NCBI GenBank assembly: GCA_965203095.1
Contig: OZ241877.1
Span: forward strand, 1,376,001 to 1,440,000
DNA length: 64,000 nucleotides
Direction: 5' to 3'
DNA from: Bdellovibrionales bacterium
GTDB taxonomy: Bacteria; Bdellovibrionota; Bdellovibrionia; Bdellovibrionales; UBA1609
Numbering within the stretch: position 1 is the first letter of the stretch; each line of letters opens with the position of its first letter. The translations under genes were made by a program, and so were the position numbers. Shown here one piece after another: positions 4,631 to 63,447 of this stretch. The notes under the pieces were generated by a model, which did not search any database, had not been told where the DNA came from, and saw only the letters and a program-made list of their open reading frames with translations.

Positions 4631-4818
4631 ATCGCCTATGAAAAATCTCTATAATTCACAGGGGATTCTTCAGCTTCTTTGCCTAAAGGTCCGTCCCATT
4701 TCGGGACGGCAATACCTTGGACCATCACCGGACGGCCTTTAAGCAAAAGTGATTGAAAAGCCTGACCCTGTAAAAACAGGGGACGAGAGGGACTAACTGA
4801 GGATTTTTCACAGGCGAT
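4631..4818 (+). mobile_element. Palindromic MITE/RPE-like element, copy A (stem type I)
   Basis: Terminal IRs ATCGCCTATGAAAAATC / GATTTTTCACAGGCGAT; inner stem 4678-4696 with 4730-4747; core AATACCTTGGACC at 4711-4723. Confidence 0.8.
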
Positions 4819-4857
4819 TATTTAATTCTCTAAGTTCATCTTTCCCGTGAAATCCCA

Positions 4858-4884
4858 GTCATCCCCGTGAAAGCGGGAATCCAG
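4858..4884 (+). repeat. REP-like short palindrome (GTCATyCCCGTGAAAGCGGGAATCCAG family)
   Basis: Related copies at 20710, 20784, 38857, 58104 and 63480. Confidence 0.75.
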
Positions 4885-4966
4885 GAATCTTTGCCTTTGG
4901 GCAAAGCCTGCTAACAAAACTATTGACAAGCTCTTAAATCAGCGGATAGCTATTTAAAATAAGGGT

Positions 4967-5239
4967 ATGAATTTTAAAATCTTTTTCATTAGTTTTTGTC
5001 TTTTTTTGAGTGCTTGCCATACTCATTCTGTTATTCGTGATCTCCCTCATCGTGCCACCAAATCAAAAATTTTAAAAGTATTGGGCCAACCCTTTAAAAT
5101 AAAAAGAAAAGATGGTAATGACCATTGGATATATAAAATGGTCATTGATGGAAGGCATTACACCAGAACTTTGGTAATAAAACAGGGGCGACTTTACAAA
5201 AAGGGACCGCTCAAGCCTTTCTCTTTAAAAAAATTTTAG
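4967..5239 (+). CDS. Small lipoprotein, SmpA/BamE-like
   Basis: Lipobox LSAC; TKSKILKVLGQP...W.Y pattern. Confidence 0.6.
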   Translation: MNFKIFFISFCLFLSACHTHSVIRDLPHRATKSKILKVLGQPFKIKRKDGNDHWIYKMVIDGRHYTRTLVIKQGRLYKKGPLKPFSLKKF

Positions 5240-6045
5240 GGGCTGGCCGATCCAGCGTCTTCCACAGGGCTTTGCTCCCAAGAAATTTTTAAAGGACAAC
5301 CCATTAAAGAGAGCACAATAACATAAGCTTGAACAGGGGAGATTTTTGCTATTTTGATTTTTCCCTCTTTTATGAGGTCCTTCTCACTTGCTTCTTCAAA
5401 TAAAGGGAGATTTAAGTGCTCATCTTTTAAAACTGCCAGAACCTTCTCCTTTGTATCTTGAGAATTGATTTCGCTCAAAATCAAATCATACACAAAAGGG
5501 CCTTGTTCTGTAGATGAAGTGCCAGCAAATTGAGCCACTTCAGAAAAATCTTCTTTTTCCTTGTTTTCTGCCTCTGCCGAGCTTTCTACAGCAGGACCTT
5601 CTTCCTGAAAGGGGAAATCCTTCTCTTCATTATTTGATGAGGGTTCAGCCCCTTCAGCCGATTCGTTTTCTGACTCTGAGGAGGAGGGCACAGGCTCTTC
5701 CGGAGTTGGGGCTTCTTCCTCCTCTTTAACAGATGAAATTTCATCTGTTTTTGAGAGGGGGGACTCCTTTTCTATATCCGATTCTATATCAGCTTCTTCT
5801 GGCATTTTAAGCTCTGGAACTTTTGTGACTTCATCAGGAAAATCCTCCTCTTCTGGAAGAGGTTCTATGGAGGAGGGAGGCTTTTCTCCCTCCTCTGAGG
5901 GGTCCGGAATTTGGCCTTGGCTTAAAACTTCACATTGGCCTTTTTTTAATAGAAGGGAAGAGCCACAGTGAGGGCAATCATAATAAACTTCCTCCTGTGT
6001 GGGGGCAGGAGATTCCCATTCATTGGCACAAACAGGGCATTCCAT
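5236..6045 (-). CDS. Zinc-ribbon protein with long acidic linker
   Basis: CPVC...CPHC at N-terminus, E/P/S-rich middle, globular C-terminus. Confidence 0.7.
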   Translation of the reverse strand: MECPVCANEWESPAPTQEEVYYDCPHCGSSLLLKKGQCEVLSQGQIPDPSEEGEKPPSSIEPLPEEEDFPDEVTKVPELKMPEEADIESDIEKESPLSKTDEISSVKEEEEAPTPEEPVPSSSESENESAEGAEPSSNNEEKDFPFQEEGPAVESSAEAENKEKEDFSEVAQFAGTSSTEQGPFVYDLILSEINSQDTKEKVLAVLKDEHLNLPLFEEASEKDLIKEGKIKIAKISPVQAYVIVLSLMGCPLKISWEQSPVEDAGSASP

Positions 6046-6190
6046 AAAAAAACCTCTTTTTTATAAATGGCATATATTTTTATAATATAACATAAAAATT
6101 CTATCAAACTTTACATAGCTTCCCAGAAAAACCAGAAAAAACTATTTTCCCGACTTTTTCGTCTTATTTTGTAGGAAAAGTTTTGAGCTT

Positions 6191-7240
6191 ATGAAAAGAG
6201 GCTTTTTTTCCGATAAACTTATTAGGATGGTTTTTTTTAAAAAAAAATTCATAAAGCTCTCTAAAAGTAGGGGCCAAGCCACAATGGAATACATTTTGCT
6301 TATTGCTGTGGTTGTGGCCATTTTTGTTGTTTTTAAAAAATATGGAGAGGGATTGATGGGTTTTTCTGCAAGGATGGTTGGTCCAGATGGCTATTACGGT
6401 TGCTTGCTAAAGAAGGGGCAGTTGCCCGGAAACCCTTGTGGTTCCCAAAACCTCGATCCACAGGCACTTTTTGACCAACATGTATCAGGAGCTCTCAGCA
6501 GTTATGACTCTTCCCAGCAGGGTCCTGGTTCCAGATCGGGGCCGGGATCCCAACCTGGCAGTCTCAACGGGGGACCAAATTCTTCCACAGATTCGGGGGA
6601 AAATGCTTTCAGCAGTGCTAATTCTTCTTCAGCTGGCAATAATTCTCGAAATAGGAGATCCCATAGGCATAAGATAGGCAAGGCTCGCTCTTTGTCCAGT
6701 AAAAGTAAAGTGGGAGGAGAAGGCAGTGGAGGGAGCACAGATGGAGAATCGGCCAGCTCAGATGATGGGAGTTTTGCTGGAAGTTCCTCCTTCCCCGCCA
6801 TTTCATCTGATGAAAAAAGAAGGGCAAAAAGAAAGAAAAAGCGAAAAAAAAGAAGTCGAGCCAGAAGAGGTGACGGGAATATTGCCGGAGGCTTTAAAAA
6901 GAAAAAAAAGCAGAGAAGAGCCTCTGCCCGGTTCCCGGTGGCCAGAGGAGAGGGCTACTTAGGCGATCAGTTTTATGAAGAGGATATGGAAGAAAGAGAA
7001 GATAAAGGCTTTAAAGGGGGGACAACAAGCCAAAAAAAAGGTTCTGATGGCATAGAAGAAAAACAAGATAAACAATTAATTTCAGATAAAAAAGCCTCAG
7101 CCACAAACCAAGGGCTAAAAGATGATGAATATGGCTTTAAATTCAATAAATTTTTAAAATATTTGGTGATCGCGGCTATGATTATCGCTGTAATTATTGT
7201 GGTTTTCTCTCAAATAATGGAATATCAGAGTCGGGATTGA
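6191..7240 (+). CDS. Flp/Tad prepilin-like N-terminus, low-complexity body, C-terminal TM; likely start 6227
   Basis: RGQATMEYILLIAVVV class III signal motif; S/G-rich and K/R-rich tracts. Confidence 0.7.
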   Translation: MKRGFFSDKLIRMVFFKKKFIKLSKSRGQATMEYILLIAVVVAIFVVFKKYGEGLMGFSARMVGPDGYYGCLLKKGQLPGNPCGSQNLDPQALFDQHVSGALSSYDSSQQGPGSRSGPGSQPGSLNGGPNSSTDSGENAFSSANSSSAGNNSRNRRSHRHKIGKARSLSSKSKVGGEGSGGSTDGESASSDDGSFAGSSSFPAISSDEKRRAKRKKKRKKRSRARRGDGNIAGGFKKKKKQRRASARFPVARGEGYLGDQFYEEDMEEREDKGFKGGTTSQKKGSDGIEEKQDKQLISDKKASATNQGLKDDEYGFKFNKFLKYLVIAAMIIAVIIVVFSQIMEYQSRD

Positions 7241-7376
7241 TCTGTTAACAAAACTTCAGGTGTTATACAGCTCCAAAAAAGCGAACTGATAGGGGCTTTT
7301 AACCCGCAACTGACTTTTAAAGATTGACGGGAAAAAACTCCCGCCAATCTTACATAAATGACTTCGTCATTAAAAT

Positions 7377-7673
7377 TCAGGTTTTGATCATAGCTATTAC
7401 TAAGCAAAACAGCACAAGGGACTCAATCATAGCCAAAGCGACCATAAAAGGAACAAACATGCTTTTCCCCGCTTGGGGATTTCGAGCAATACCCTCCATT
7501 GCTGAAGCGGCCACTCTCCCTTGGGCCAAAGCTCCACCCAGTGCACCAAGAGAAATGGCCAGTGCAGAGGCCAGGGCCTTCATGCCAACATCTCCCCCGC
7601 TGGCAGATGATACATCCGCCGCATAAACACTGAATGGTAAAAGGCTAAAAACAGCCCATATCCAAAATCTCAT
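7377..7673 (-). CDS. atpE: ATP synthase F0 subunit c with N-terminal extension
   Basis: GALGGALAQG, ARNP loop and IES carboxylate; SD AGGAGG before ATG at 7673. Confidence 0.93.
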   Translation of the reverse strand: MRFWIWAVFSLLPFSVYAADVSSASGGDVGMKALASALAISLGALGGALAQGRVAASAMEGIARNPQAGKSMFVPFMVALAMIESLVLFCLVIAMIKT

Positions 7674-7703
7674 TTTTCCTCCTTTTTTTAAAGGTTTTGC
7701 CAC

Positions 7704-8393
7704 TTAATGATCATGAGAGATCGCCAAAGCCACATAAACCATAGAGAGAATAGTAAAAACAAAAGCCTGCAAAGTGCAAACAAAAAGTCCAAGAAAATAA
7801 AATATTATAGGGACGAGAAAGGGGGCCATATCCAAAAAAATGCTGATCACAACATGATCTCCCATCATATTGCCAAAAAGGCGAAAACCCAAACTGACAG
7901 AGCGAAACACATGGGATAACACTTCAATAAAGACAAATAGAGGAGCTAAAAAAAGAACAGGACCCAAAAACTGCTTAAAATAAGCCCAGCCATGCTCTTT
8001 TAAGCCATAATAATTGTAAGCTAAAAAGGAGAACAAGCCCAAAGCCAAAGTGGTATTGAGGTTTTGGCTGGGAGGCAAAAATCCAGGAACAAGCCCTAAA
8101 AGGTTTTGGACCCAAACAAACAAAAAGAAAAAGCAAAATAAAGGAATCATTTTCTGGCCATAAGGCCCGATTATGGAATCAGAAAGCTGGCTTATTTGCT
8201 CTACAAAAAGCTCAAAAAAGCCTTTAAGGTTAAATTTTCCTTCAGGGATATATCCTTTTTTTTTGTTTTTTAAAGCTCTGCTCGCAAAAAAAACCAAACA
8301 GAGTAAAAAAATGGCACAAAGCAGGCTGTAAATCCAATGATAAGAATCATGGGGAATCCAAGAAATCAAATCCACCCAAGTAAAATGGGACAT
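7704..8393 (-). CDS. atpB: ATP synthase F0 subunit a
   Basis: SLGFRLFGNM, LQAFVFTILS. Confidence 0.95.
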   Translation of the reverse strand: MSHFTWVDLISWIPHDSYHWIYSLLCAIFLLCLVFFASRALKNKKKGYIPEGKFNLKGFFELFVEQISQLSDSIIGPYGQKMIPLFCFFFLFVWVQNLLGLVPGFLPPSQNLNTTLALGLFSFLAYNYYGLKEHGWAYFKQFLGPVLFLAPLFVFIEVLSHVFRSVSLGFRLFGNMMGDHVVISIFLDMAPFLVPIIFYFLGLFVCTLQAFVFTILSMVYVALAISHDH

Positions 8394-8451
8394 ATATAGA
8401 CAGCTCCTTTTAACTGAGGGGGCCTCTTATAGAGACACCTTTGTTAATAAC

Positions 8452-8588
8452 TATTCCCCCATGAAAAAGTCCACTTTTTATAGATCGCATAAGCAAAAGT
8501 CCAGCTTGTTCGCGGGAAAAATACCTTGGACCCTCACCGCTGGCTTTTGCTTATGCGATAAAAGGCAGAGGCTTTTCACAGGCAACTA
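8452..8588 (+). mobile_element. Palindromic element copy B (stem type II)
   Basis: Stem ATCGCATAAGCAAAAGTCCAGC (8484-8505) / GCTGGCTTTTGCTTATGCGAT (8539-8559); core at 8520-8532; degenerate TIRs. Confidence 0.8.
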
Positions 8589-8689
8589 ACTCTTGTTTAT
8601 AGAAAAAAATTTTTTAAGCCAAGAAAAAACAGAGGCAAAAAGATTTTTTCAAAAAAGCAGGTCTTTCCCTCCTCTGGATTTTCAGCCTT

Positions 8690-10066
8690 TTATGGAATAG
8701 GCTCATTTATTACACGAGAAAATTCCGATTTAATTTGCTTAAGTTTTTTTTGATCAGAAGCAGAAAACCGCATGGACAAAAGGGGCTGAGTTTTCGAGAC
8801 TCTAAAAAGAGCATAACTTGAACTTCTGGAGAGGCGAACACCATCAATGGCGACAAAACTCTCTCCTCTTTGTTGAAGATAGGATTGAATTTGAGACAAT
8901 TTTTTTTTTGCCTCAGCCCAGGACATGTTTATGCGGATCTCCCTCGTCCCTACCCCAACAGTTTGAGGCATTAAAGCTTTTAAAGGTTGATTTTTTAAAG
9001 ATAAAAGCTCTAAAAGCCTTAAACTGGCATAAAGGGCATCATCTGATTCCCCTTGAGAGCCTTTTCGGTCATTAAAAAAAATATGCCCGCTAAACTCTAT
9101 CGCCAACTGGGCCTGAGTCCTCTCCATCTCTGCCCTTATCCTTGCATGCCCACTGGGGATCATTAAAATTTTAAAACCCTCTTTTTTTGCCAAGTTAAAA
9201 AACCAGTCAGAACATTTAACATCGGCTAAAATTAAAGCTCCTCTTTTTTTATCAAGACTTTTCAAAAATAAATAACCTAACTCATCTCCAAAAAGAAGTC
9301 GCCCTGCTTTATCCATCACAGACAAACGATCCCCGTCTCCGTCAAAACCTATACCTAACTCAAAACTCCCTTTTTTGATTTCCTTTTTGAGTTGAGAGAG
9401 ATTTTCTTCCAAAGTGGGATCGGGATGGTGATAAGGGAATCGGCCATCGGGCTGGTCAAAAAGAATTTTGGGATTTAACTGCAAAGCGGAAAATACTTTT
9501 TTAGCTAAAGGGCCTAAAGCCCCGCTACCGGTATCTATAACAAAGGGAGGAAATTTTTTTGCAGAAAATTCTTTTTTAATCCATTCAATATAAGCCTTTT
9601 CTTTTTCCAAGTTTAAATAAGTTCCCGATCTTTTTAAGGCTTTTTGCCTAACTGATTTTTTATTGAGCAGGAGATTTTTAATCCTTTTTATAGGATAAGG
9701 AATTTTATAGTTATGATGGAAAAGTATTTTAAAGCCGTTGTCTTCTGGAGGGTTATGGCTGGCTGTCACCACAACACAAGCAGTCAAATTGTAATGGTTC
9801 AGCAAAAAATAGCAGAGGGGGGAGGGGGCAAGCCCTATAAAAGCGACTTGAGCACCTTGGGCTACCAAATTCTTTGTGAGAGCTTGACTGATCTCCGGGC
9901 TGGAGAGGCGAGCGTCATGCCCCACTAAAAATTGAGGAGGCGAGGCCCCTTTTTGAAAAGACAGCTGGAAAAGGGCTAAGCTCAGATCTTTTGTAAAAGA
10001 GAGATCAAAATCTTTGTTATAGACACCGCGAATATCGTTGGCCCGAAAAATATGAGAAGAAAACAT
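8690..10066 (-). CDS. Phosphomannomutase/phosphoglucomutase
   Basis: IFRANDIRG, TASHNP, FDGDGDR, EFSGH. Confidence 0.93.
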   Translation of the reverse strand: MFSSHIFRANDIRGVYNKDFDLSFTKDLSLALFQLSFQKGASPPQFLVGHDARLSSPEISQALTKNLVAQGAQVAFIGLAPSPLCYFLLNHYNLTACVVVTASHNPPEDNGFKILFHHNYKIPYPIKRIKNLLLNKKSVRQKALKRSGTYLNLEKEKAYIEWIKKEFSAKKFPPFVIDTGSGALGPLAKKVFSALQLNPKILFDQPDGRFPYHHPDPTLEENLSQLKKEIKKGSFELGIGFDGDGDRLSVMDKAGRLLFGDELGYLFLKSLDKKRGALILADVKCSDWFFNLAKKEGFKILMIPSGHARIRAEMERTQAQLAIEFSGHIFFNDRKGSQGESDDALYASLRLLELLSLKNQPLKALMPQTVGVGTREIRINMSWAEAKKKLSQIQSYLQQRGESFVAIDGVRLSRSSSYALFRVSKTQPLLSMRFSASDQKKLKQIKSEFSRVINEPIP

Positions 10067-10290
10067 AAAAATTTTAAACCTGCTCTTTAGTTAAGTTAAG
10101 CCAGCCTATAGTCTGTAAAACAGGACTTAAGCTGATTTATACCCCCCTTTAGTCTAAAATGATAGCACTAAAAAAACCTCATTCCAAAAGGTTAAAGGAG
10201 ATAAAATAAAAAACTCTTAATAATTAAAGAGTTTAAGAAACAGATCTCTTAAAGCATTTTTTTGAAAGCAGGTTTTTGCCATTTTATTTT

Positions 10291-11262
10291 ATGAAAAAAC
10301 ATATCATTCGGCTTTTTAAAAATCTTCTTCCACCGAGCTTTTTATTATGGATAAAAAATGGCATTCGTAAATTGCTCTTTTTAACTCAAAAGCACGGGCA
10401 AATTATACTTATTGTTGGGATTGCTTTTTTGATTTCTGATTTGCTGGTAATAAAAAGCCACAATTTTTTGCTGGCAGACAATAACTTGCCTCCTATTCGC
10501 CTGTCCCGTCAAAGCTCTGTTTCCGGCTCATCGGTTTCCGATTACAACAACTTATGGGAAAACAATATTTTTCACACAGGGCCTATCCCTCAGCAGTTGG
10601 AAGAACCCCCAAGCAATGCGGAACCGGAAAAAAGCTCTTTGCCCTTTAAATTGAAAGGGACTATCATTCACGCCAACCCTAACCGATCCGTGGCCACTAT
10701 AGACGGAGGGCTAAAAAATAAAACTTCCTCCTATCAAGTGGGAGATGTGATAGAAAATCAGGCAGAAATCCGTCATATTCAAAGAGGTAAAGTGATTATT
10801 TTTAATCAAAACAACAATCGATTAGAATATATTGAGCTACCTGAAGAAAAATACTCCCTGGACATTTCCTACCAAGAGGACAAGCCTCAAGTTGAGGACA
10901 GAGGCATTGTTAAAAAAACTGGTGGCAATAGCTTTCAAGTGAATCGATCAGATGTTTACTCGCATTTACAAAAACTTCCTGAGATTTTAAATCAAGCAAA
11001 AGTTGTCCCTCACTATGAAGATGGAAAGATTATTGGTTGGCGATTTTCATCTGTAGATAAAGGCAGTGTGATTGAGAGTTTGGGCTTTTCCAAAGGGCAT
11101 ATTATTAGAGAGGTGGATGGAGAGACCATCACATCGCCTGAGAAAGCTATTGAGCTTTATGAAAGGCTGAAGTCCAGAAGTGCTGTAAAAATACTTGTCG
11201 AAAAAAACGGTAAGGAAGTATATTATGAATACAATGTCAATGAGGATGCTCCTATAAATTGA
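10291..11262 (+). CDS. gspC: Type II secretion protein C with PDZ domain
   Basis: N-terminal TM, LKGTI HR domain, C-terminal PDZ; first gene of the gsp cluster. Confidence 0.85.
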   Translation: MKKHIIRLFKNLLPPSFLLWIKNGIRKLLFLTQKHGQIILIVGIAFLISDLLVIKSHNFLLADNNLPPIRLSRQSSVSGSSVSDYNNLWENNIFHTGPIPQQLEEPPSNAEPEKSSLPFKLKGTIIHANPNRSVATIDGGLKNKTSSYQVGDVIENQAEIRHIQRGKVIIFNQNNNRLEYIELPEEKYSLDISYQEDKPQVEDRGIVKKTGGNSFQVNRSDVYSHLQKLPEILNQAKVVPHYEDGKIIGWRFSSVDKGSVIESLGFSKGHIIREVDGETITSPEKAIELYERLKSRSAVKILVEKNGKEVYYEYNVNEDAPIN

Positions 11263-11270
11263 GGAAAAAC

Positions 11271-20727: not shown

Positions 20728-20958
20728 GGGATTGAGGATTGCCGGGGGCCATCCGAAAAGGTTCGCGGGAAAGATAGATTTCTCTGGATTCCCGTTTTCA
20801 TGGGATTGAGGATTGCCGGGGGCCATCCGAAAAACTAAGTGGGATTGACTTGGTTCACGGGAGCCAAAAAGTTTGGGGATTTTTTTGGCAAACTTGCTGG
20901 GGTCCAGCCGAAAAGGTTCGCGGGATCGATTAAATGTAGACTTTTTCACGGAGGACTA
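20704..20958. repeat. Composite repeat: two REP-containing units (period 74 bp), a G-rich hairpin unit and an element terminus
   Basis: CTGGATTCCCGTTTTCATGGGATTGAGGATTGCCGGGGGCCATCCGAAAA at 20710 and 20784; 20924-20958 is the reverse complement of the type II element left end. Confidence 0.8.
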
Positions 20959-30709: not shown

Positions 30710-30845
30710 TAATTAACTGTGAAAAAGTCTACATTTAATAGATCGCATAAGCAAAAATCCATCTGGTTTGTGGGAAAAACACCTTGGACCATCACCGGAC
30801 GGCTTTTAGGCAAAAGCGATTGAAAAGCTTGTCCCCTGTGAAAGA
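30710..30845 (+). mobile_element. Palindromic element copy C (chimeric: type II left half, type I right half)
   Basis: Left half matches copy B and right half matches copy A; core AACACCTTGGACC at 30778-30790. Confidence 0.75.
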
Positions 30846-30890
30846 AAATGTCTGTTTTATTTCGTGGGGAGATACCTTCCATCAAGTTTT

Positions 30891-34142: not shown

Positions 34143-34250
34143 TAGTCGCCTGTGAAAAAGCTTACATTTAATGGATCGCCCAAGCAAAAAGTCCAGCTTG
34201 TTCGCGGGAAAAATACCTTGGACCATCACCGGACAGCCTGTAGGCAAAAG
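34143..34250 (+). mobile_element. Palindromic element copy D (chimeric, right end truncated)
   Basis: Left TIR TAGTCGCCTGTGAAAAAG; type II left arm; core at 34212-34224; type I right arm. Confidence 0.75.
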
Positions 34251-34351
34251 AAGTATGGGCAAGCGGTCAGGTAAAAGGGGTTAAAAAGCATAGGCTTTGC
34301 AGGGCTTTGGTATAGATAGAGATTAGAGAGAAAAATAGAGAGTTCTGAGGC

Positions 34352-42454: not shown

Positions 42455-42659
42455 TACTCGCTTGTGAAAAAACCCCTAAAAAGCATTATTCTTAAATTTC
42501 TTTATCCAAAGGCCACAGCATTTCGGGACGGCAATACCTTGGACCCTCATGCTGTGGCCTTTAGATAAAAGCAGTTAAAAGGATGGTTTTCCATAAATTT
42601 GCCACTGAGAAATCAGGAAGTGGAGATGAATGGCTAAGGGCTTTTTTCACGAATGAGTA
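42455..42659 (+). mobile_element. Palindromic element copy E (stem type III)
   Basis: TIRs TACTCGCTTGTGAAAAAA / TTTTTTCACGAATGAGTA; stem 42501-42521 with 42549-42569; core at 42533-42545. Confidence 0.8.
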
Positions 42660-53848: not shown

Positions 53849-54042
53849 TTAGTTGCTCGTGAAAAAGCTCTATAATTTACAGGGGATTCTTCAGTTTCTT
53901 TGCCTAAAGGTCCGTCCCATTTCGGGACGGCAATACCTTGGACCCTTATGGGACGGCCTTTAGGCAAAAGTGATTGAAAAGTCTGCCCCTGTAAAAGTAG
54001 AGAATGAGAAGGGCTAAGTGAGACTTTTTTACGGGCGACTAA
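53849..54042 (+). mobile_element. Palindromic element copy F (stem type I)
   Basis: TIRs TTAGTTGCTCGTGAAAAAG / CTTTTTTACGGGCGACTAA; stem 53899-53920 with 53948-53968; core at 53932-53944; closely similar to copy A. Confidence 0.85.
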
Positions 54043-54249: not shown

Positions 54250-54420
54250 AGCTAATTAGTTGTCCGTGAAAAACCTTTGTTTTTTAACTTTTTTTGTCCA
54301 AAGGACCATTCCATTTCGGGACGGCAATACCTTGGACCCTCATGGAATGGCCTTTGGACAAAAGCAGGAAAAAGAGGACGAGGCTTTTTGTCCAGCTTTT
54401 TCACGGACGACTAATTAGCT
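54250..54420 (+). mobile_element. Palindromic element copy G (stem type IV)
   Basis: 24-bp TIR with 1 mismatch; stem 54292-54314 with 54342-54363; core at 54326-54338. Confidence 0.85.
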
Positions 54421-54592
54421 CCGATTCAAAGGAAAAAGCCCATAAATGCTGTGTTTGTGAGGATTCTGTAGGCTTTTTCTCTTATTTTTCTGCTTGGGGA
54501 TTAAAAAAAAGTTATTTATTCCTATATTTAGGGCTTGCTCCCACATAAAAATCTTGATAGGTTAAAAATATCTTTTACATAGGAGGTCTAAA

Positions 54593-55027
54593 ATGAAAAA
54601 ATATTTCTCAATACTTTTACTGGCCTGTTTTGCAATATTGTGGACAGGTTGCGATAAGACAGACGAACCAGAGGGTGGTTCAGCAGATGAACAATCGGCA
54701 GAAGAGTCAACATCAGGTGCTGATTCAGCAGAGGAAACAGTGGCAGAAGAGCCAACATCACTGGCTGGAAGGGTCCAAGTCGCATTAACAAAAGCTACGG
54801 AACTTATCAGTGCCAACTCAGATTGTGCATATAAGCTTGAAGTTTTCACGGCTACGGCACCTGGCAGTGTTACGCAAGCAACTGTTTCAACTCTTCAACA
54901 GGAAGCTCAAACTAAAGGATTTGCCTATAGAGTTTCAAAAGATGGCACCAACGAATGTAGCACAAAAGTCATCAATAGCCAAGTTTGTCATAATAAGTTT
55001 AAGAAATTATGTACTGAGGCCAGTTAG
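54593..55027 (+). CDS. Small acidic lipoprotein with four Cys in the C-terminal domain
   Basis: SD AGGAGG, lipobox WTGC, own terminator. Confidence 0.8.
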   Translation: MKKYFSILLLACFAILWTGCDKTDEPEGGSADEQSAEESTSGADSAEETVAEEPTSLAGRVQVALTKATELISANSDCAYKLEVFTATAPGSVTQATVSTLQQEAQTKGFAYRVSKDGTNECSTKVINSQVCHNKFKKLCTEAS

Positions 55028-55105
55028 ATCCTGACTTAAGTTTGCCGTTTAGAGAAGTGATTTGAAGAAGACTTAGATTATAAATTTTAGAGGATTCATA
55101 GTCAA

Positions 55106-55132
55106 AAAAGGACAGGTAAAATCTGTCCTTTT
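55106..55132. terminator. Intrinsic, potentially bidirectional terminator
   Basis: AAAAGGACAG-gtaaaat-CTGTCCTTTT. Confidence 0.75.
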
Positions 55133-55193
55133 AATAGAGCTTTTTGATAAATGAAAAGAGGTTTTTTTTAATTCAGCTCTGCCATGTGTCTTT

Positions 55194-57020
55194 ATGTTGA
55201 ATATTCTTATCGGGCACAGAGGGACAGGCAAAAGCCACTTTTTAAAGCTTTTGCAAGTGGCTTATGGCAATAAAGCCCTGGTTTTTGACTTAGATAAGGA
55301 AATCGAAAAATCAGAAGGCCAAAGCCTTTCCCTTTTATTTCAACAAAGTGAAAATAAATTCCGTAAAATAGAAAGCCAAACTTTTAAAAAGCTCATCAGC
55401 TCTATTCCAAAAAACAAAATTTGTTTTGTGGCTGTGGGTGCAGGTTTTATTTTTAAAAAAGATTTTTCTTGGAATATAATCCACCTTTGCCGTAACAGTG
55501 ACGAATCAGGAAGAGTGTTTTTTAATCGCCCACGGCTGAAACCCCATAAAGATCCTTTTAAGGAATACCATTTTTTTTATAAAAAAAGAGTGGGCTATTA
55601 CTTCCGACAAGCAGACGAACAGTGGTTCCGGCGAGAGCATTTTCCCGATCTGGAGGATTCTGATAAACTTTTTCTTTCTCTTAAAAAAAACATAAAACCT
55701 CATTTTGCTCTCCGGTTAGACCCTCAATTGTGCCCTAAAAATAAAAACCAACTCCGGCTTTTTTTGCAAAAAAGGCTGAACTGGGGGATAAGGTTTTTTG
55801 AGTTGAATGACCAAACCGCAAACAATGAGTTTGTTCAAGCGGTTCGATCTTTTGTCCCGGAGAGAAAAATTTTATTCTCTGCACAAGTTTCCAAAAAATT
55901 TTTATATATAAAAAACAAACAAAACTTCAGTTGGGATTTGAGTTTGGGCCGGCCCCCAAAATCAGCTCAATTTTTGAGCTGGCACAATAGGAACAAAAAA
56001 AGTTTGAAAGCCATTTTGCTGGAATTTTCCACTTACAAAAACCGTCATTTAAAATTAGCTGTGGAAATTTTTAACCTCAGAGAACTAAAAATGGCTTATG
56101 ACTGGCAAAAAGAAGATCCCAGGAACCGGAGTTTTTTGCCTCGTTCAAAAAAGGGCCGATGGCTTTGGTTTCGGCAAGTTTTTGGCCCTAAAATGCGACT
56201 TCACTTTATTAGGGAACGAGCATGTCATTTTAAAAAACCAGAAAAAGGCTCAAAGGATATTTTGGATCAGCCCTTCTTGTCCGAAGCTCTTCCTTATATA
56301 AAACCCTGGAAAGCTCTGGCCGGAGTTTTAGGCGATCCGGTCAGCCTTTCGGCCACACCGGCAGAGCAAAATCACTTTTTTTATGAAAAGAGATCAGTTC
56401 CCGTTTTGTCCCTCCCTCTCAAGCTGAAAGAGATGACAAAAGAGAATTTAAAAATTTTAAGTGATCTTCATTTTATTTTTTTTGCTGTCACATCCCCTTT
56501 AAAAAAGAAAGCTTTTTTATGTGTAAGTGCTACTGACAAAATCTCCCAGCAAGTGCAATCAGTTAACACCTTGATCTGGAATCAAAAAAAATGGTTGGCT
56601 TTTAATACAGACTTTGATGGCTCAAAAAAGTTAATCCCTTACTCTTCAAACACAACAGCTGTTTGGGGCGGAGGCGGTTTAAGGCCCGTTTTGCAAAAAA
56701 GATTGCCATTCGCTCGATTTTATTCTGCAAGGACTGGGCGAGAACTGCCCCGGCCAAAGCCCTCCAAAAGCTTTTCCCCAAAAACTGTGATTTGGGCTGT
56801 AGGGCGAGGGAGGATGAAAAAAGCCCTTATGCCACCTCAGCATTGGATGCCCACTCAAGTAATAGATATGAATTACACTGAAGACTCCCCTGGCCGTGAT
56901 TACGCCTTGAAAACTGGTGCCAATTACACTAATGGCTGGGCTTTTTTTAAGGAGCAAGCGAAAAAACAAAGGGATATATTTTTGCGAATAGAACGACAAA
57001 AGGATATACTCAAAAGATGA
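55194..57020 (+). CDS. Fused shikimate kinase / dehydroquinase-like / shikimate dehydrogenase
   Basis: IGHRGTGKS and DLDKEIE (kinase); LKLAV (AroD-like); VTSPLK, SVNTL and NTD (AroE); upstream of aroC. Confidence 0.8.
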   Translation: MLNILIGHRGTGKSHFLKLLQVAYGNKALVFDLDKEIEKSEGQSLSLLFQQSENKFRKIESQTFKKLISSIPKNKICFVAVGAGFIFKKDFSWNIIHLCRNSDESGRVFFNRPRLKPHKDPFKEYHFFYKKRVGYYFRQADEQWFRREHFPDLEDSDKLFLSLKKNIKPHFALRLDPQLCPKNKNQLRLFLQKRLNWGIRFFELNDQTANNEFVQAVRSFVPERKILFSAQVSKKFLYIKNKQNFSWDLSLGRPPKSAQFLSWHNRNKKSLKAILLEFSTYKNRHLKLAVEIFNLRELKMAYDWQKEDPRNRSFLPRSKKGRWLWFRQVFGPKMRLHFIRERACHFKKPEKGSKDILDQPFLSEALPYIKPWKALAGVLGDPVSLSATPAEQNHFFYEKRSVPVLSLPLKLKEMTKENLKILSDLHFIFFAVTSPLKKKAFLCVSATDKISQQVQSVNTLIWNQKKWLAFNTDFDGSKKLIPYSSNTTAVWGGGGLRPVLQKRLPFARFYSARTGRELPRPKPSKSFSPKTVIWAVGRGRMKKALMPPQHWMPTQVIDMNYTEDSPGRDYALKTGANYTNGWAFFKEQAKKQRDIFLRIERQKDILKR

Positions 57021-58063
57021 ATGCCAACAGTTCCGGTCATATTTTTAAATTTCACAGTTTTGGGGAGAGTCATGGCCCAGCTATGGGGGCAGTGATTGAG
57101 GGTTGTCCCGCAGACTTGCAGGTATCCACAAAGCTTTTGCAAGAAGAACTGAACCGCCGGCGACCCGGACGCCATCCTTGGGAGTCTTCCAGAAAAGAAC
57201 CCGATCAGGCAGAAATTTTGAGCGGGGTTTTTAAAGGAAAAACCTTGGGAACTCCTATAGCTGTCTTAGTTTTTAATAAAAATCAAAAAAGCAGAGATTA
57301 TCACTGGGCTGAAAAAAAACCTCGTGCAGGCCACAGCGAAGATCTTTGGAAAGCCAAGTTTTCGCATTATGATCCAAGGGGCGGGGGTCGCTCCTCTGGA
57401 AGAGAGACTGTGGCCCGTGTGATTGCCGGAGCCTTTGCACGAATGGCACTTCAAAAACTTTGCCCTGAGTTCAAAGTGATGGCTTTTGTCCGTCAGATCG
57501 GAAATATAAAGATCCTTCCCAAAGAGATGGCCACAGCGGAAATGCTCTTCCAAAAACAAGCCCTTTCAGAAACATTTAAAGCCTGTATCCCTCATAAGGA
57601 AAAATCAGAACAGGCGGTTCAACAGTTAATGAAAGCCAAAAAAGAGGGGAATAGCTTAGGTTCTCTTGTCCAGCTTTGGATAGGCAATTTGCCCAAAGGC
57701 TTGGGCCAGCCCCTATTTTGTAAGTTCAAATCGGATTTGGCTCAAAGGATTATGAGCCTTCCGGCCAGTATGGGCTTTGAGTTGGCTTTGGGCATGGATT
57801 CGGCTTCAGCTGAAGGAAAAGACTTTCACCGTTTTAAAGAAAATTATGGCGGTTTGAGAGGGGGTCTCACTACAGGAGAGAGGCTTTGCTTGAAAGTGGC
57901 TTTTAAGCCTCCTTCTTCTATAGGAGATATTTCTAAAAAAGGGCGACATGACCCTTGCATTGGCCCCAGAGCGGTCCCCGTTATAGAGGCCATTGCTCGC
58001 CTTGTCACAGTGGATCATCTTCTTTGGAAGCGATTGGACCGGATGGAAAAGCCTGTTTTTTAA
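57017..58063 (+). CDS. aroC: Chorismate synthase
   Basis: FGESHG, RRRPG, GGGRSSGRET, GRHDPCI. Confidence 0.96.
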   Translation: MNANSSGHIFKFHSFGESHGPAMGAVIEGCPADLQVSTKLLQEELNRRRPGRHPWESSRKEPDQAEILSGVFKGKTLGTPIAVLVFNKNQKSRDYHWAEKKPRAGHSEDLWKAKFSHYDPRGGGRSSGRETVARVIAGAFARMALQKLCPEFKVMAFVRQIGNIKILPKEMATAEMLFQKQALSETFKACIPHKEKSEQAVQQLMKAKKEGNSLGSLVQLWIGNLPKGLGQPLFCKFKSDLAQRIMSLPASMGFELALGMDSASAEGKDFHRFKENYGGLRGGLTTGERLCLKVAFKPPSSIGDISKKGRHDPCIGPRAVPVIEAIARLVTVDHLLWKRLDRMEKPVF

Positions 58064-58103
58064 AGATCGCCTAAGTAAAAACAAGCAATGAGGTCCAAGA
58101 GTG

Positions 58104-58131
58104 CTGGATTTCCGCAAAAGCAGGAATCCAG
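58104..58131 (+). repeat. REP-like palindrome
   Basis: CTGGATTTCCGCAAAAGCAGGAATCCAG. Confidence 0.65.
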
Positions 58132-58182
58132 AAAAGCCTGGAGATTTTTTCATTATGAACCTCATAGCTGTTTGACTTACAG

Positions 58183-58232
58183 ACACAAAATGATAAACTT
58201 GCAACATCCATTGTTGGTTTATCATTTTGTGT
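58183..58232. other. Perfect 16-bp inverted repeat with 18-nt spacer
   Basis: ACACAAAATGATAAAC-N18-GTTTATCATTTTGTGT. Confidence 0.85.
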
Positions 58233-58690
58233 TCTTATGTTGCTGGCCTCATTCCCTGAATGGGGCTTTTGACTATCCGAGTCCATAAGTGAAGTTTTTT
58301 TGTCAAGCTGACTGTCCCCTATGTCAAACTGGATTTTTCAGTAGGCAGAGTAGGATTATTTAAGTTTAGGATTTTGTTAAAAAAACTTAAAGCCTCCCGG
58401 CAAAAAAAGAGCCGTAAACTGTGGCCACCCCCTTTTGCTTGGGACTCCACACTTGTTTTTAAGGCTTATTTGCGTCTTGAAGGGCTGGATGTGGATGTGT
58501 TTTCAGAGGGATAAAGAACATATCGGCCACTGCCAATTCTGGTTTCGTCCCATTTCAATGTTTCCTTTGTCAAGTCTCTGCCTCTATCAAGCCATTTTTC
58601 CTTTGTCCAACTATCAGCCAGAATAGGCTTTTTTCCACAGCTGAGGCTTTTTGATAGAAGATTAGAGAGAAAAATAGAGGGGTCTTAGGC

Positions 58691-59350
58691 TTAATTCCCC
58701 CAGTTAATCTTGTCTGTGTTCAATGCTCCGCTGGCCATAATCATGTCACGATATGTTGAGTCTATAAAAACCCCCGCTAAGTCTGCTCCAGTCAGGGTTG
58801 CTTCTGTTAAGTTTGTTCCTGTTAAAGTCGCTCCCTCCAAGTTTGCCTCTGTCAAGTTTGCCTCTGTTAAGTTTGCTTTTTTTAAATTTGCCCTTGTCAA
58901 GTTTGCCTTTGTTAAGTCTGCCTTTGTCAGGTTTGCCTTTGTTAAGATCGCCTTAAACAAGTCTGCCCTAAACAAGTTTGCCTCTGTTAAGTTTGCTTTT
59001 TTTAAATTTGCCCTTGTCAAGTTTGCCTTTGTTAAGTCTGCCTTTGTCAGGTTTGCCTTTGTTAAGTTCGCTTTTATCAAGTTCGCCCCTTTCAAGTTCG
59101 CATTTATCAAGTTCGCCCTTTTCAAGTTCGCTGTCAGCAAGATCGCTTCCGCTAAATCTTTTTTCCCTTGTTTTATTTTTTTTATCAGCTCTGCTTGTTT
59201 TTTTCTCTCTTCTAAAGTGAGTTGTGGAATAGTCATATAAGTCCCCTTTTCAGTCTCTTCTAAGGTGATTTGATTAAGCTCTACCTTCCGTTGGTTTTGC
59301 CCCTGAGCTGGGATTGCAAACATAAAAAGAATTAAAATCAGACCTTTCAT
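58691..59350 (-). CDS. Secreted pentapeptide-repeat protein (PRP2)
   Basis: Signal peptide, ANLTK repeats with an internal duplication of 120-bp period, cap GALNTDKINW. Confidence 0.9.
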   Translation of the reverse strand: MKGLILILFMFAIPAQGQNQRKVELNQITLEETEKGTYMTIPQLTLEERKKQAELIKKIKQGKKDLAEAILLTANLKRANLINANLKGANLIKANLTKANLTKADLTKANLTRANLKKANLTEANLFRADLFKAILTKANLTKADLTKANLTRANLKKANLTEANLTEANLEGATLTGTNLTEATLTGADLAGVFIDSTYRDMIMASGALNTDKINWGN

Positions 59351-59411
59351 ACTTATCTTATCGGGTTATTGTCCGGGAATATAAAGAAAAAAGAACCGTA
59401 AACTTTTGCGT

Positions 59412-59662
59412 TCATACTTTTCCCCATAGTTTTTTATAGCGTTCAAGTTCTTTTTGTGAGAGTTCTGCGTCTTCACTGTTGTTGGGTTGATTTTGTTGCA
59501 GTTTTTTGGCTTTGATTTTTAGTGCTTGCATTTCTGGGGAAACACCTAAGAAGTGGGAGGCCATAGTTAAAGCGTGATTGGGGTCAATATCGCCTTCTAA
59601 TGATCTTTGTTTGCCTTTTGGTTTTCTGGCTGTCCGGGATTTTCTTAGTATTTTTTTCTCAT
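59412..59662 (-). pseudogene. Small ORF apparently frameshifted in an A7 run near its start
   Basis: TATAAT just upstream of ATG 59662; ATG AGA AAA AAA TAC TAA, while the shifted frame runs about 80 codons to TGA at 59412. Confidence 0.4.
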
Positions 59663-59781
59663 AATGTGCTATTATAGGCCATTTTAGATTGTTTTTTGTG
59701 AGTCTAAAGTCTTGGGTTTAAAGAGGGATAGAGCCGTATACTGTGGCCACCGGGAAAAAGCAAATAAAGGGAATAAAGAGG

Positions 59782-60051
59782 CTATTTGTTTTTGTGTGCT
59801 TGCTTTGACGGATTGTGAGAATGATTTTTAAACTCATAAAACAGCTGTTTAAGCTCCGCTTGCCCCTCTTTTATGCTATCTATATCACTTGATAGCTTGG
59901 CTTGGCCAGCCTCAATCCTGTCTATCCTCTTATCAAGATTAACCTGATTAGCCTTAACCGGAGCTAAAAGGAGATTAAAGACAATTCCTAAGCCAGTTAA
60001 AATAGCCACAAAAGCAATAACAGCTTGAAATAAAGGAGTAAAGATTTTCAT
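59782..60051 (-). CDS. Small TM plus coiled-coil protein, same architecture as 25812-26135
   Basis: TM helix, then LDKRIDRIEAGQAKL; perfect sigma70 promoter upstream. Confidence 0.7.
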   Translation of the reverse strand: MKIFTPLFQAVIAFVAILTGLGIVFNLLLAPVKANQVNLDKRIDRIEAGQAKLSSDIDSIKEGQAELKQLFYEFKNHSHNPSKQAHKNK

Positions 60052-60057
60052 ACATCC

Positions 60058-60086
60058 ATTATATGGACATTGGCCGGGAATGTCAA
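60058..60086 (-). promoter_or_regulatory. Consensus sigma70 promoter, predicted leaderless transcript
   Basis: TTGACA-N17-TATAAT-N6-ATG on the minus strand. Confidence 0.8.
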
Positions 60087-60190
60087 GTTTTTATTTCAAG
60101 TGCTCAAATATCAGCCAGAATAGGTTTTTTTCCCAGCTGAGGCTTTTGATATAGATAAAAATTAGAGAGAAAAATAGAGGGGTCTGAGGC

Positions 60191-60845
60191 TTAATCCACC
60201 CAGTTAATCTTGTCTGTGTTCAATGCTCCGCTGGCCATAATCATGTCACGATATTTTGAGTCTATAAAAGCATACAATAAGTTAGCCCCTTTAAAATCTG
60301 CTCCTTCCAATTTCGCCCCATGCAATTTTGTCGCATTCAAGTTAGCTTTTATTAAGACTGCCTCTGTTAGGTCTGCCTCTGTTAGGTCTGCTCCTACCAA
60401 GTTAGCCTTTGTTAAGTTTGCCTCATACATGGTCACCCATCTTAAGTCTGCCTCTGTTAAGATAGCCTTTGTCAAGGTTGTTGCGGGTATTCTTATCAGT
60501 TCCATTATTGCCCTTGTTAAGTTTGCCATTGTCAAGTTTGCCTTATAATAAGTCTGCCTCTCTCAAGTCTGCCTTCGTTAAGTTAGCCCTTGTTAGGTCT
60601 GCCCATCTCAATTTTGCCTTTGTTAAGTCCGCATTTGTCAAGTCCGCCTCTCTCAAGATTGCCCCTCTCAAATCAGCCCCTCTCAAGATTGCCTTTGTTA
60701 AGTCCGCATTCGTTAAGTCTGCCCTTCTCAAGTTTTCCCCTTCTAAGTCTTTACATTCCCCTTGTCTAATTTCGTCAATCAGGTCTGAGTCTAAGGCCAA
60801 CCCCGGCAAGTTCATTAAAAGGATAAGGCTTAATAGTATTTTCAT
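60191..60845 (-). pseudogene. Pentapeptide-repeat protein PRP3, +1 frameshift near 60545
   Basis: GAC TTA TTA TAA GGC; removing one T restores ADLYKANLT and joins ORFs 60543-60845 and 60191-60535. Confidence 0.8.
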
Positions 60846-60951
60846 TGTGTAGGGTTATAGCAGGATGGATCGGGAAGATAAAGTTTTTTTTAGTCTTTTG
60901 TAAAATTTTCACACAAAAGGGCAGACTTTATTGTGGGGCTTTGTCCTTTAA

Positions 60952-61018
60952 GCTGGTCTTTTGCTTATGCGATAACGGACAGAGCTTTTTCACGAGCGAC
61001 TTAATCGCCTGTGAAAAG
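60952..61018 (+). mobile_element. Right half of a type II element abutting a second left TIR
   Basis: GCTGGTCTTTTGCTTATGCGATA...CTTTTTCACGAGCGAC-TTAA-TCGCCTGTGAAAAG. Confidence 0.65.
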
Positions 61019-61149
61019 CCTTGTTAAAAAGATTGCATTATTCTTCAATTTCTTTAAAAGCCATAGCTTGCTTTTCCATAAAAAGCACTTTATACTATTT
61101 TTTTGGATTCTCAGTAAGTTAAACACCAACTAATAAGGAGAATATACCA

Positions 61150-62121
61150 ATGAAAATCAAAACTCAAAAAACCAGAAAAGAACTTGGGGAGTTTTCGGTA
61201 TTAAAGCCCGGAAACCATCACGACAAATTTTTTAAAAGATTCTATTCTCAGCCTCAATTTGCTGAGGAGATTGTGAGATTGATATTGTCTAAAGAGGAGT
61301 TAAAAGCCTGTAATCTATCAAAACTCAAAGTAGAAAAAAGCCTTTTTAAAGATAAGCAAATGGACTTGGTTTTGTCTTTTCCCCTAAAAAACTTTCCTAA
61401 AAGCCAGATCAGGATAGTCGTCCTGTTTGAGCACAAGTCCAAATATGACAAAAATCTCTTTAAGCAGGTTTTAAGGTATCAGACAAAGCTTTATGAGCAG
61501 TCCCAACAGAGGATAGTAGTAATTCCTGTTTTGTTTTATCACGGAAAAGTCCCTTGGAGTTGGAAGTTGTCTTTTCAGGAGGCTGTTTTAGGAGAGTTTT
61601 TTTTAAAAATTCCTCGATCTTTTAGAAAAAACATGTTAAATTATGGTTTGAGGTTATTGAATACAGGGGATAGGAGGGTTCAGAGGGTTTTTGATGATCG
61701 GAGTTTTAAGACGGGTCGGGTTTTACAGTTGTTGGACCGTGTGTGGTTTTTAAAGGATAATGAGCGGGAGTTGCGGGAGGTATTATTTGCTTTTTTTAGG
61801 GTTTTTAAGCGTGATGAGTGGATATTGGCTGTGGCCAAGTATTTGAGGTCGGCGGGGGTGAGTTTTAAACTTTGGAACAAGTTGGAGGAAGAGGCTATTA
61901 AGAAGGCTTTATTAAAGAAAGGAGGCTATATGGACATAAAAGAGGAAATTCGGCTGGAAGGTCGCTGGGAAGGCGAAAAAAAAGGCTTTAGAAAAGGCCG
62001 GCAAGAGGGACGGGAGGAAGTTATCCGGAATATGTTGAGAGAAAAGGTAGATTTGGCTTTCATCTCTAAAGTGACGGGCCTACCTGTTCGAGAGATTAAA
62101 AAGCTTAAAAACGGTTCTTGA
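61150..62121 (+). CDS. Rpn/YhgA-like PD-(D/E)XK nuclease
   Basis: HHDKFFK, MDLVL, LFEHKS, IPVLFYHG..PW, EGRWEG..KGRQEG repeats, ISKVTGL. Confidence 0.9.
   Translation: MKIKTQKTRKELGEFSVLKPGNHHDKFFKRFYSQPQFAEEIVRLILSKEELKACNLSKLKVEKSLFKDKQMDLVLSFPLKNFPKSQIRIVVLFEHKSKYDKNLFKQVLRYQTKLYEQSQQRIVVIPVLFYHGKVPWSWKLSFQEAVLGEFFLKIPRSFRKNMLNYGLRLLNTGDRRVQRVFDDRSFKTGRVLQLLDRVWFLKDNERELREVLFAFFRVFKRDEWILAVAKYLRSAGVSFKLWNKLEEEAIKKALLKKGGYMDIKEEIRLEGRWEGEKKGFRKGRQEGREEVIRNMLREKVDLAFISKVTGLPVREIKKLKNGS
61930..62121 (+). CDS. Putative internally initiated small C-terminal protein (RpnS-type antitoxin), 63 aa
   Basis: AAAGGAGG SD directly before an in-frame ATG at 61930. Confidence 0.65.
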   Translation: MDIKEEIRLEGRWEGEKKGFRKGRQEGREEVIRNMLREKVDLAFISKVTGLPVREIKKLKNGS

Positions 62122-62303
62122 TTCTTTTTTAGTTTGTTTGTCCGTGTTTTGTCACTTTAGAGATGGGCTTGTTTAAAAAGCCCCTTATAAAAAGCTCTTT
62201 GGCTTTGTCTTTTAAGCTGAATTTTTCGAGGTTTATTTTGTTGCCCTTCTGAGGGGAAGGAGTATAGATAAAGATCAGAGAGAAAAATAGAGGGTTTTGA
62301 GGC

Positions 62304-63070
62304 TTAATCCACCCAGTTAATCTTGTCTGCTTTCAATGCTCCTTTTAATGATCCAAGATATTGATATTTTGAGTCTATATAAGCTCCTTCCAAGTTTGCC
62401 TTTCTAAAGGTTGCCCCCCTCAAGATTGCCTCTCTCAAGTCTGCCCCTTTTAAGTTTGCCTTTGTCAAGTTTGCCTTTATCAAGCTTGCCCCTGTCAAGT
62501 TCGCCCTTGTCAAGTTCGCCTTTGTCAAGTTCGCCTTAAACAAGTTTGCCCTTCTCAAGTCTGCATTTGTCAAGTCTGCCTTATACAGGTTAGCCCATAC
62601 CAAATCTGCATTTGCAAGTTAGCCCTTCTCAAGGTTGTCTTATACAAGTTAGCCTTATACAACTTAGCCCCTTGCAAATTTGCCCCGGTTAAGTTTGCCT
62701 TATACAAGTTTGCTTGCCTCAAGTCTGCTCCTGTCAAGTCTGCCTCATTCAACATCGCCCTCCGCAAGTCCGCTCCCGCCAAATCTTTTTTTCCTTGTTT
62801 TATTTTTTGTATCAAAATCCCTTGTTTTTTTTGCTCTTCTGAAGTGAGGGGGGGCAAAACAAAAGCAGGGGATCCCCCACTATTTATCAAGTTAGCCCCT
62901 CTCAAGTCTGCTCCCGCCAAATCTTTTTCCCCTTTCTTTATTTGTGCAATAAGACTCCCTTGTTTTATTGGATCAACTGGTTTAAGCGACTCCCCCTGAG
63001 CTGGGATTGCAAAAAATAAAAGAATTAAAATGATTTGTTTCATGTTCCCTCCGTTTAAGGATTGTTTCAT
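62304..63070 (-). pseudogene. Pentapeptide-repeat protein PRP4, -1 frameshift near 62614
   Basis: AAC TTG CAA ATG; adding one A restores ANLTNADLVWANL and joins ORFs 62570-63070 and 62304-62603. Confidence 0.8.
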
Positions 63071-63077
63071 GTTTACT

Positions 63078-63104
63078 TTATCGGCTGGTTGTCCGTGTTT
63101 TTAA
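63078..63104 (-). promoter_or_regulatory. Putative sigma28/FliA-type promoter
   Basis: Minus strand TTAA-N15-GCCGATAA-N7-ATG. Confidence 0.6.
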
Positions 63105-63318
63105 AGTCCTGTTTTTTAAAACTTGACTTTAGTTCTTTAAGTTCTTTTGAGAGGCTGTCTATTTTTTCATTGGCTGATTTTAATTCCTGTTTTAGCTGAT
63201 CGTCCGTTTTGCTGAGGGCTTTTAGCTCTGAGTTTTGGACTTTAAACTTTGCCTCTATTGTGGATTTGTTTAAAAAACTTTAGAAAAAAATGGCCAGATC
63301 AGGCAAAAAAACTAAAAA

Positions 63319-63447
63319 ATTGCCTATAAAAAATCTCTGTTCTTTATCGCACAAGCAAAAGCCAGCGGTGAGGGTCCAAGGTATTTTTCCCGCGAACAAG
63401 CTGGACTTTTTGCTTGTGCGATCCATTAAATGTAGATTTTTTGCGAG
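63319..63447 (-). mobile_element. Palindromic element copy H (type II, inverted)
   Basis: Arms 63346-63366 and 63400-63422; core (reverse complement) at 63373-63385. Confidence 0.8.

Follow-up and report, generated by a model that had tools for sequence, protein, structure and literature searches.

The repeats and their outer shell

A 64,000-nt stretch of a Bdellovibrionales genome (positions 1,376,001 to 1,440,000 of contig OZ241877.1, called the window below) contains eight intergenic copies of a palindromic repeat, and the question it raises is what moved the copies and what may have kept their fold. The initial annotation of the window had described one invariant loop core on four covarying stems, and had suggested an undescribed structured element rather than an inert MITE (a miniature transposable element with inverted repeats). 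We propose that each copy is an IS5-type shell carrying a shrunken module of the TwoAYGGAY-like repeats, which may be read by a nuclease, and give this explanation as a whole a rough probability of 0.62. The genome, G000 in what follows, is of 1.8 Mb and its assembly is 90% complete.

A search of the window with a 17-base core, allowing up to two mismatches, gave nine matches against a chance mean of 0.02. Eight of them are the copies already described, at the places given for them, and the ninth, at 62346, has no stem and is a chance match. In the whole of G000 there are 124 core matches (81 exact, 31 with one mismatch and 12 with two), and two of the last 12, which look like chance, were left out of later counts.

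The outer shell of each copy is almost certainly a gene-less MITE of the IS5 family, 133-201 bp in length. Shell ends were located by weight matrix, and left and right terminal inverted repeats (TIRs) of G000 were paired if within 300 bp. An exact 6-bp duplication of pattern TANNTA is present at 24 of the 58 pairs (TATTTA, TAATTA, TAAATA, TATATA, TACATA, TAGTTA and TACTTA were seen), compared with a mean of 5.1 and a maximum of 11 in 2000 shuffles, and 3 further pairs have 7-bp duplications. In those 24 the flanking six bases are identical on both sides, and the outer TA, which had been counted in the TIR, is therefore target DNA. With that correction the TIRs stand as described for five of the eight window copies (A, B, E, F and G), in which both are recognisable. 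For the outer shell alone the contrast drawn with MITEs does not stand, as it is an ordinary IS5-derived MITE with matching ends and duplications.

The ends GTCGYCYGTGAAAAA and the TANNTA duplications are common to the shell and to full IS5 elements. Scanning GTDB genomes for the end sequence gave 122 loci, among which are 15 distinct elements of 1.42-1.55 kb that have open reading frames (ORFs) of 426-465 amino acids between two such ends, 8 of them with exact duplications of 6-7 bp. The transposase family is that of Pfam DUF772 plus DDE_Tnp_1, and the two proteins tested scored 508 and 502 bits on NCBIfam NF033578 (cut-off 275). The transposase gene bounded by the same TIRs that the initial annotation had proposed to look for was thus found in other genomes and not in G000, where no TIR pair was found to enclose a gene with matching duplication within 8 kb. 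The cognate transposase is present in G106, G111 and G017, and for a family of relics it is not required in the same genome. The IS630, IS1634 and IS3 elements of G000 were rejected as parents, their ends being unrelated.

Some other occurrences of these ends may be recorded here. In unrelated bacteria (L052, L087, L092 and L137) they surround hairpin repeats of GTAG type, NTS type and other types. Lone TIRs without a core are found in the window at 20958, 25081, 26207, 29957, 47998 and 63685, and there are 149 unpaired ends genome-wide. At G000:C1:226059-226254 a left and a right TIR, the flanks of which differ by one base, enclose a tRNA-Asn gene together with its upstream region, as if the shell had captured it.

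The module in full IS5 elements

In G106 the module lies behind the transposase coding sequence, on the sense strand, at six of the nine loci fetched, starting in the last transposase codons and stopping about 25 bp short of the right TIR. Two of these module-bearing elements are 1.58 kb long with intact ORFs of 445 amino acids, and in a third the TATTTA duplication is exact. An IS5 remnant in G105, with a protein 79% identical, has a variant of the module at the same place, and the module is absent from the sister IS5 of G017 (56% identical) and from other IS5 elements of G106 and G111. One G106 mini-element is made of two right ends, which suggests that the symmetrical MITEs arose by recombination in palindromic arms.

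With regard to IS5 insertion sequences and MITEs in general, the TIRs, the TANNTA duplication, the lack of coding capacity and the existence of a full-length partner with the same ends are all as expected. The difference is that one lineage bears a conserved multi-helix fold behind its stop codon and its sister elements do not. The bcr1, Correia/nemis and RPE elements, as treated by Delihas 2011 (PMC3184786), resemble ours in size, TIRs, direct repeats and compensatory fold changes (the last stated there for bcr1), but in our case the parent IS is identified, and the cargo forms a family of its own that is found outside the shell as well.

Of the mobile genes next to the module in seven genomes, those of IS5 and of the abundant Rpn-type family were the only ones to recur. 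Rpn genes, which have many copies, were rejected as the mover, as they are not consistently flanked by the core. In G105 an Rpn-type C-terminal tail is joined in frame to an N-terminal IS5 fragment (L393, 1468-2067).

The folded core

The fold is described on the TGA..GAA strand, opposite to the AATACC strand, and strands of window copies are given on it. It consists of a long stem, a tandem TGA/GAA (GA/GA) loop, a 3-bp helix, a UCCAA/GU (TCCAA/GT) loop and a small hairpin. The core is thus neither invariant nor a plain loop, as had been thought, and the spacer after GGGA, given as three or four bases, is in fact of two or four.

That the inner helix is maintained is seen in G105 (the same genome as G041), a relative of G000 with 161 core matches. 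Among 110 copies the helix is GGG/CCC in 50, GTG/CAC in 25, GAG/CTC in 24, AGG/CCT in 9 and mispaired in 2, so that 108 of the 110 are paired, by four pair types. The covariation score of this helix was reached by none of 500 shuffles, and controls in which the helix was slid gave far lower scores, all on related sequences. Pair counts were above those of all the shuffles and of every slid control, but the rows are related, so no probability is attached to the pair statistics, and the structure had been used in fitting alignment A2. In the outer stem of G105, unlike the inner helix, wobble pairs and bulges remain uncorrected. On the maintenance of structure, and on the element being more than an inert MITE, the initial annotation was right, as covariation extends into the supposed loop.

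The modules also appear to be shuffled. In 111 copies of G105 the helix types are found combined in various ways with two junction types and six stem types, and five of the 111 have arms of two stem types, which indicates that modules have been exchanged between copies. The idea that each stem derives from its insertion site found no support, as stems are common to several loci in G100, G112 and G108 and gene overlap is seen in IS5 only. However, copy-specific stems of 30-42 bp in other genera keep that idea alive.

Distribution of the short module

Model R1, built for the short module, was scanned in 109 genomes of the family and then in 151 of the phylum. Among the 109 its matches were in G000, in 7 of the 15 genomes of genus g48 and, weakly, in one further genome; among the 151 there was none outside the family. 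The hairpin above the inner helix varies from 2 to about 15 bp. Copies fetched from G100, G112, G108 and G110 have no IS5 ends and often adjoin NTS-type repeats, and in relatives some modules sit within ribosomal-protein and ATP-synthase operons, in either orientation.

Wider searches were negative. Model R2 gave no match in 48 genomes from other groups in which the TIR is also present, in a search that had no positive control. A strict core pattern, one base too long for the G105 forms, had no match in the genome contig collection; it had one chance match in metagenomes, and 47 and 2 viral matches in which the fold is absent. Plasmid and phage records had no match, viral contigs had no relative of the IS5 or Y1 proteins, and scans of viral sequence with an AYGGAY pattern gave nothing usable.

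Two local arrangements are of interest. At L466:4112-5500 in G112 there are six tandem units of 235-261 bp, each of one module and one NTS repeat. The thyA-folA gap has a module in both L335 (G100) and L478 (G112), with different stem and head types, from either replacement in place or repeated insertion.

Probable relationship to TwoAYGGAY repeats

Long forms of the module in G111, G110, G112, G108, G007 and G125 keep its base and add two hairpins with AYGGAY-type loops. The base, GG-TGA-[helix]..[helix]-GAA-CAA, is identical in the short and two-AYGGAY forms of G111 and G110 and near-identical in G112, G108, G007 and G125, an example being GG TGA GGG ... CCGT CCC GAA CAA. Model R3, built from ten long forms, found the long form in 15 of the 109 family genomes, with up to 28 scored copies. 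A loose 10-base pattern was at background level and served only for choosing loci.

These intermediates join the cargo to TwoAYGGAY-like repeats, and to that extent it can no longer be called wholly undescribed. On the sequence resemblance, the cargo probably descends from such a repeat. Both have a long basal stem with a short helix and junction, both are variable and multi-copy, and the long forms of relatives have the two AYGGAY-loop hairpins. The GA/GA loop and UCCAA are features of this lineage, and the window copies sit in an IS5 shell and do not match the TwoAYGGAY model. AYGGAY loops are absent from the folded strand of all eight window copies and from G000. The window element is thus like a truncated TwoAYGGAY base, yet it is not a member by the defining loops of that family. 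An Rfam scan of the window found a tRNA only, with no TwoAYGGAY match, and short forms gave only generic hairpin matches.

Many bacteria have TwoAYGGAY repeats by the tens to hundreds according to the preprint of Li et al. 2026 (bioRxiv 10.64898/2026.09.22.753630), which describes strong copy-number variation, adjoining REP arrays and a mobile-like expansion, the mechanism of which is left open there with no mover named; IS5 and MITE do not appear in its main text. The motif is merely listed in the part of Weinberg et al. 2010 (PMC2864571) that deals with it. In the literature searched we found no description of the present element, nor of an IS5 lineage with a multi-helix fold, although the preprint supplements may show such variants.

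Other genera of the family also have two-AYGGAY heads, there borne on near-perfect stems of 30-45 bp that differ from copy to copy (L499-L505, L581, L587, L591 and L605).

Candidate readers of the fold

Of 128 proteins adjoining long forms 52 were examined, and they include two Y1/HUH transposases, both in G125. That genome has four Y1_Tnp paralogues, 79-100% alike, each flanked by long forms. In G024 a Y1 locus has one long form, identified by eye, at 237 bp. The reverse transcriptases of four relatives were rejected as readers, as they are of unrelated defence types (three scanned).

The comparison with REP/REPIN-RAYT and TIR/TIRYT systems is close in some respects. As outlined by Di Nocera et al. 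2013 (PMC3733652) those are intergenic folded repeats in either orientation, and in G125, though in no other genome, Y1 genes flanked by long forms recall them. However, the GTAG/CGTC tag of that account is absent from ours, in which the stem ends vary, our element is much longer and branched, and with the Y1 query used no such gene was found in the short-form genomes. The NTS/SRM repeats are hairpins read as single-stranded DNA by Ssn nucleases, according to Chenal et al. 2025 (PMC11893778), and NTS-type repeats often adjoin our module, but sequence and fold differ and the small cd10448 GIY-YIG gene was not found in G000 or G105. For the latter two genomes the search for a small single-domain GIY-YIG gene gave only UvrC and GIY-YIG proteins of 234-270 amino acids. 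A scan of G000 found no Y1_Tnp, reverse transcriptase or small GIY-YIG gene.

Proposed explanation and its alternatives

We propose that one IS5 lineage acquired the module at its right end, that recombination between palindromic arms then gave symmetrical mini-elements, and that these would have been spread by the transposase, probably supplied from elsewhere in the case of the present copies. Differences between stems may be due mostly to one arm being copied from another and to swapping of modules, and not to slow pair-by-pair change. The kept junction would be the recognition site, on folded single-stranded DNA, of a nicking enzyme, most likely a RAYT-type Y1/HUH nuclease, and the same enzyme would spread and shuffle the TwoAYGGAY-like family, the AYGGAY loops being a dispensable addition acting at the RNA level. 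In G000 both helper enzymes would be missing and the copies would be decaying relics.

The part of this that concerns the reader is much less secure than the shell or the descent of the cargo. That a RAYT-type Y1/HUH nuclease recognises the junction as folded single-stranded DNA, with the AYGGAY loops acting only in RNA, is a tentative suggestion. We are a little more doubtful of the wider proposal, that the GA/GA loop, 3-bp helix and UCCAA/GU loop are the minimal mobility signal of TwoAYGGAY-like repeats, read by a RAYT-like nuclease or adopted as an RNA cofactor of IS5, and separable from the CsrA-type loops.

Several results weigh against the explanation as a whole. NF033578 has no match in G000, in an assembly that is 90% complete, and the copies there may not be active at present. 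Of the 58 junctions rebuilt to look for the empty sites that the initial annotation had thought worth seeking, only 2 matched a paralogous site, at 75-86%. In G000 the inner helix is decaying: all three pairs are present in only 60 of 89 copies, compensatory changes are absent, and helix-broken variants have been amplified (GGG/CCA 8, GCG/CCC 6), which means that IS5 transposition does not strictly depend on the fold. The three double changes in the G105 helix may amount to just three events. As to the nuclease, R3 matches are found at 4 of 33 Y1 loci, all in G125, and at none of the 29 from other genomes; the Y1 query found nothing in the 15 genomes of genus g48, in 9 congeners or in G000, and missed G043, G019 and G047, all rich in long forms. 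As to the family, the Rfam model RF01731 scored 35.5 bits at L342 and 37-42.3 bits at three loci of other genera in the family, all below its gathering score of 43; it gave no match at E<=1 for four long loci of G111 and G112, and none in five other genomes, the last result being uninformative. R3 in turn does not detect the short form in G000, and with the sub-threshold Rfam scores this means that the TwoAYGGAY link rests on the common junction sequence.

The strongest alternative, if still an unlikely one, is that the junction acts as RNA, as a 3'-end structure of the transposase message or of read-through that binds protein or protects the RNA, with the long forms binding CsrA as well. The module lies in sense orientation directly 3' of the IS5 stop codon, G.U-type pairs and tandem GA are on the sense strand, and RNA folding gives z of -2.9 to -7.8. 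G.T-type mismatches are indeed commoner on the TGA..GAA strand (24 v 12 in G000, 25 v 8 in G105), but G.T and GA pairs also stabilise DNA hairpins. AYGGAY loops are proposed as Csr/Rsm sites in the TwoAYGGAY preprint (bioRxiv 10.64898/2026.09.22.753630), and CsrA was present in all five genomes tested; however, the folded strand of the window copies has no such loop. An RNA role is also not favoured by the orientation of the G000 copies to co-directional host genes, which is unbiased (23 v 23). By replication strand the counts were 70 v 52 (p 0.12), with a GC skew that was itself poorly defined.

Less likely again is a neutral passenger, in which a few founder variants were amplified by transposition, the arms were homogenised by template switching and the fold is not read today. 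The decay and the amplified helix-broken variants of G000, the few independent double changes and the failure to find a helper gene in G000 are all as this would have it. It does not account well for G105, where the inner helix is paired in nearly all copies while outer-stem faults persist and where helix types recur across junction and stem types, nor for a junction that has been kept in eight genomes, whether or not IS5 ends are present, under a hairpin that varies freely.

A role of the module as a small self-cleaving ribozyme, or as a new RNA cofactor for the IS5 transposase in question, is very improbable. Two conserved asymmetric loops 3 bp apart amid variable helices are a compact, active-site-like layout, and the place within the IS is fixed, but Rfam ribozyme models have no match, the hammerhead CUGANGA core was not seen by inspection, close IS5 relatives lack the module, and relatives have it in both orientations in the operons mentioned above. 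Likenesses to hammerhead, hairpin, twister and VS ribozymes, K-turn and SECIS were considered and dropped by inspection.

That the element is a cassette site of attC type, recognised by its extrahelical base, which the initial annotation had offered as an analogy, is hardly credible, since the unpaired base, near-fixed in place in 61 of 79 G000 stems, is present in 17 and missing from 88 of 105 G105 stems, GTTRRRY/RYYYAAC ends were not seen by inspection, insertions leave DDE-type duplications and the G112 tandem units enclose repeats and not genes, even though a retron locus of G111 is flanked by two long copies in direct orientation. At that locus the two long variants (L471:248-398 and 2836-3052) bracket a retron-type reverse transcriptase gene with an upstream gene for 237 amino acids.

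The copies in the window

Seven of the eight copies are on the minus strand. Copy A (4631..4818, core 4700-4727) is a 188-bp MITE with two of three inner-helix pairs and a duplication decayed by two mismatches. Copy B (8454..8586, core 8509-8536), of 133 bp, also has two of three pairs, and its flanks are TAACTA and TAACTC. Copy E (42457..42657, core 42522-42549) has 201 bp, an exact TAAATA duplication and a stem without the unpaired base; copy F (53852..54039, core 53921-53948) has 188 bp and no exact duplication; and copy G (54259..54411, core 54315-54342) has 153 bp and an exact TAATTA duplication. The inner helix is fully paired in these last three only. In one contig of run X5 (depth 2.5) the interior of copy G is replaced by 39 other letters.

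Copies C and D are chimeras. Copy C (30712..30860, right end approximate, core 30767-30794) is decayed, with a left arm of B type, a right arm of A type and one degenerate TIR, and copy D (34145..34290, right end approximate, core 34201-34228) has one intact TIR. Their arms come from different stem types and are unpaired, and they score 31.6 and 28.5 bits respectively, compared with 48.7-75 for the other copies. Copy H (63317..63452, ends approximate, core 63369-63396), on the plus strand, has a B-type stem and degenerate ends. The four stem types of the initial annotation are present, though the pairing does not extend to copies C and D. The single unpaired base in three stem types and the compensatory T-A to C-G difference between copies B and H are both there in the sequence.

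A half element at 60952..61018, strand unassigned, has one B-type arm with a TIR and an abutting second TIR but no core, and belongs to a block that recurs at four Rpn copies. It lies upstream of an Rpn/YhgA-like gene (61150-62121) that matches Transposase_31 at 76.5 bits (cut-off 21), so that the statement that the window has no transposase needs qualifying, though no tie of this gene to the shell ends was found. The gene is one of 18 such matches in G000, four near-identical copies of which share the upstream half element with abutting TIRs.

Hairpin repeats of NTS/dRS3 type are present at 4858, 20711, 20785, 38858 and 63481 of the window, and a small SsnA-like gene was not found in the G000 assembly. 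Elsewhere in G000 cores adjoin each of three arrays of a secreted-looking protein of 319-323 amino acids (11 copies; C1 204081-208371, 512092-517421 and 1593492-1595540). The second contig, C2, of 17 kb, is a tandem repeat with a unit of about 1.1 kb and little coding content, and may belong to another organism.

Significance for the TwoAYGGAY-like family

The shell is ordinary, and the interest lies in a covarying 28-nt junction that has outlasted both AYGGAY loops, rides one IS5 lineage and also spreads without IS5. The family offers a concrete vehicle with a footprint, in IS5 with its target duplications, together with a natural deletion series that runs from two-loop forms to the 28-nt junction, still covarying, and a candidate nuclease. 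If the wider proposal on the minimal mobility signal is correct, HUH nicking and DDE transposition, two machines with no relation to each other, would both spread one structured element, and the 28-nt core would make the multiplication of TwoAYGGAY directly testable.

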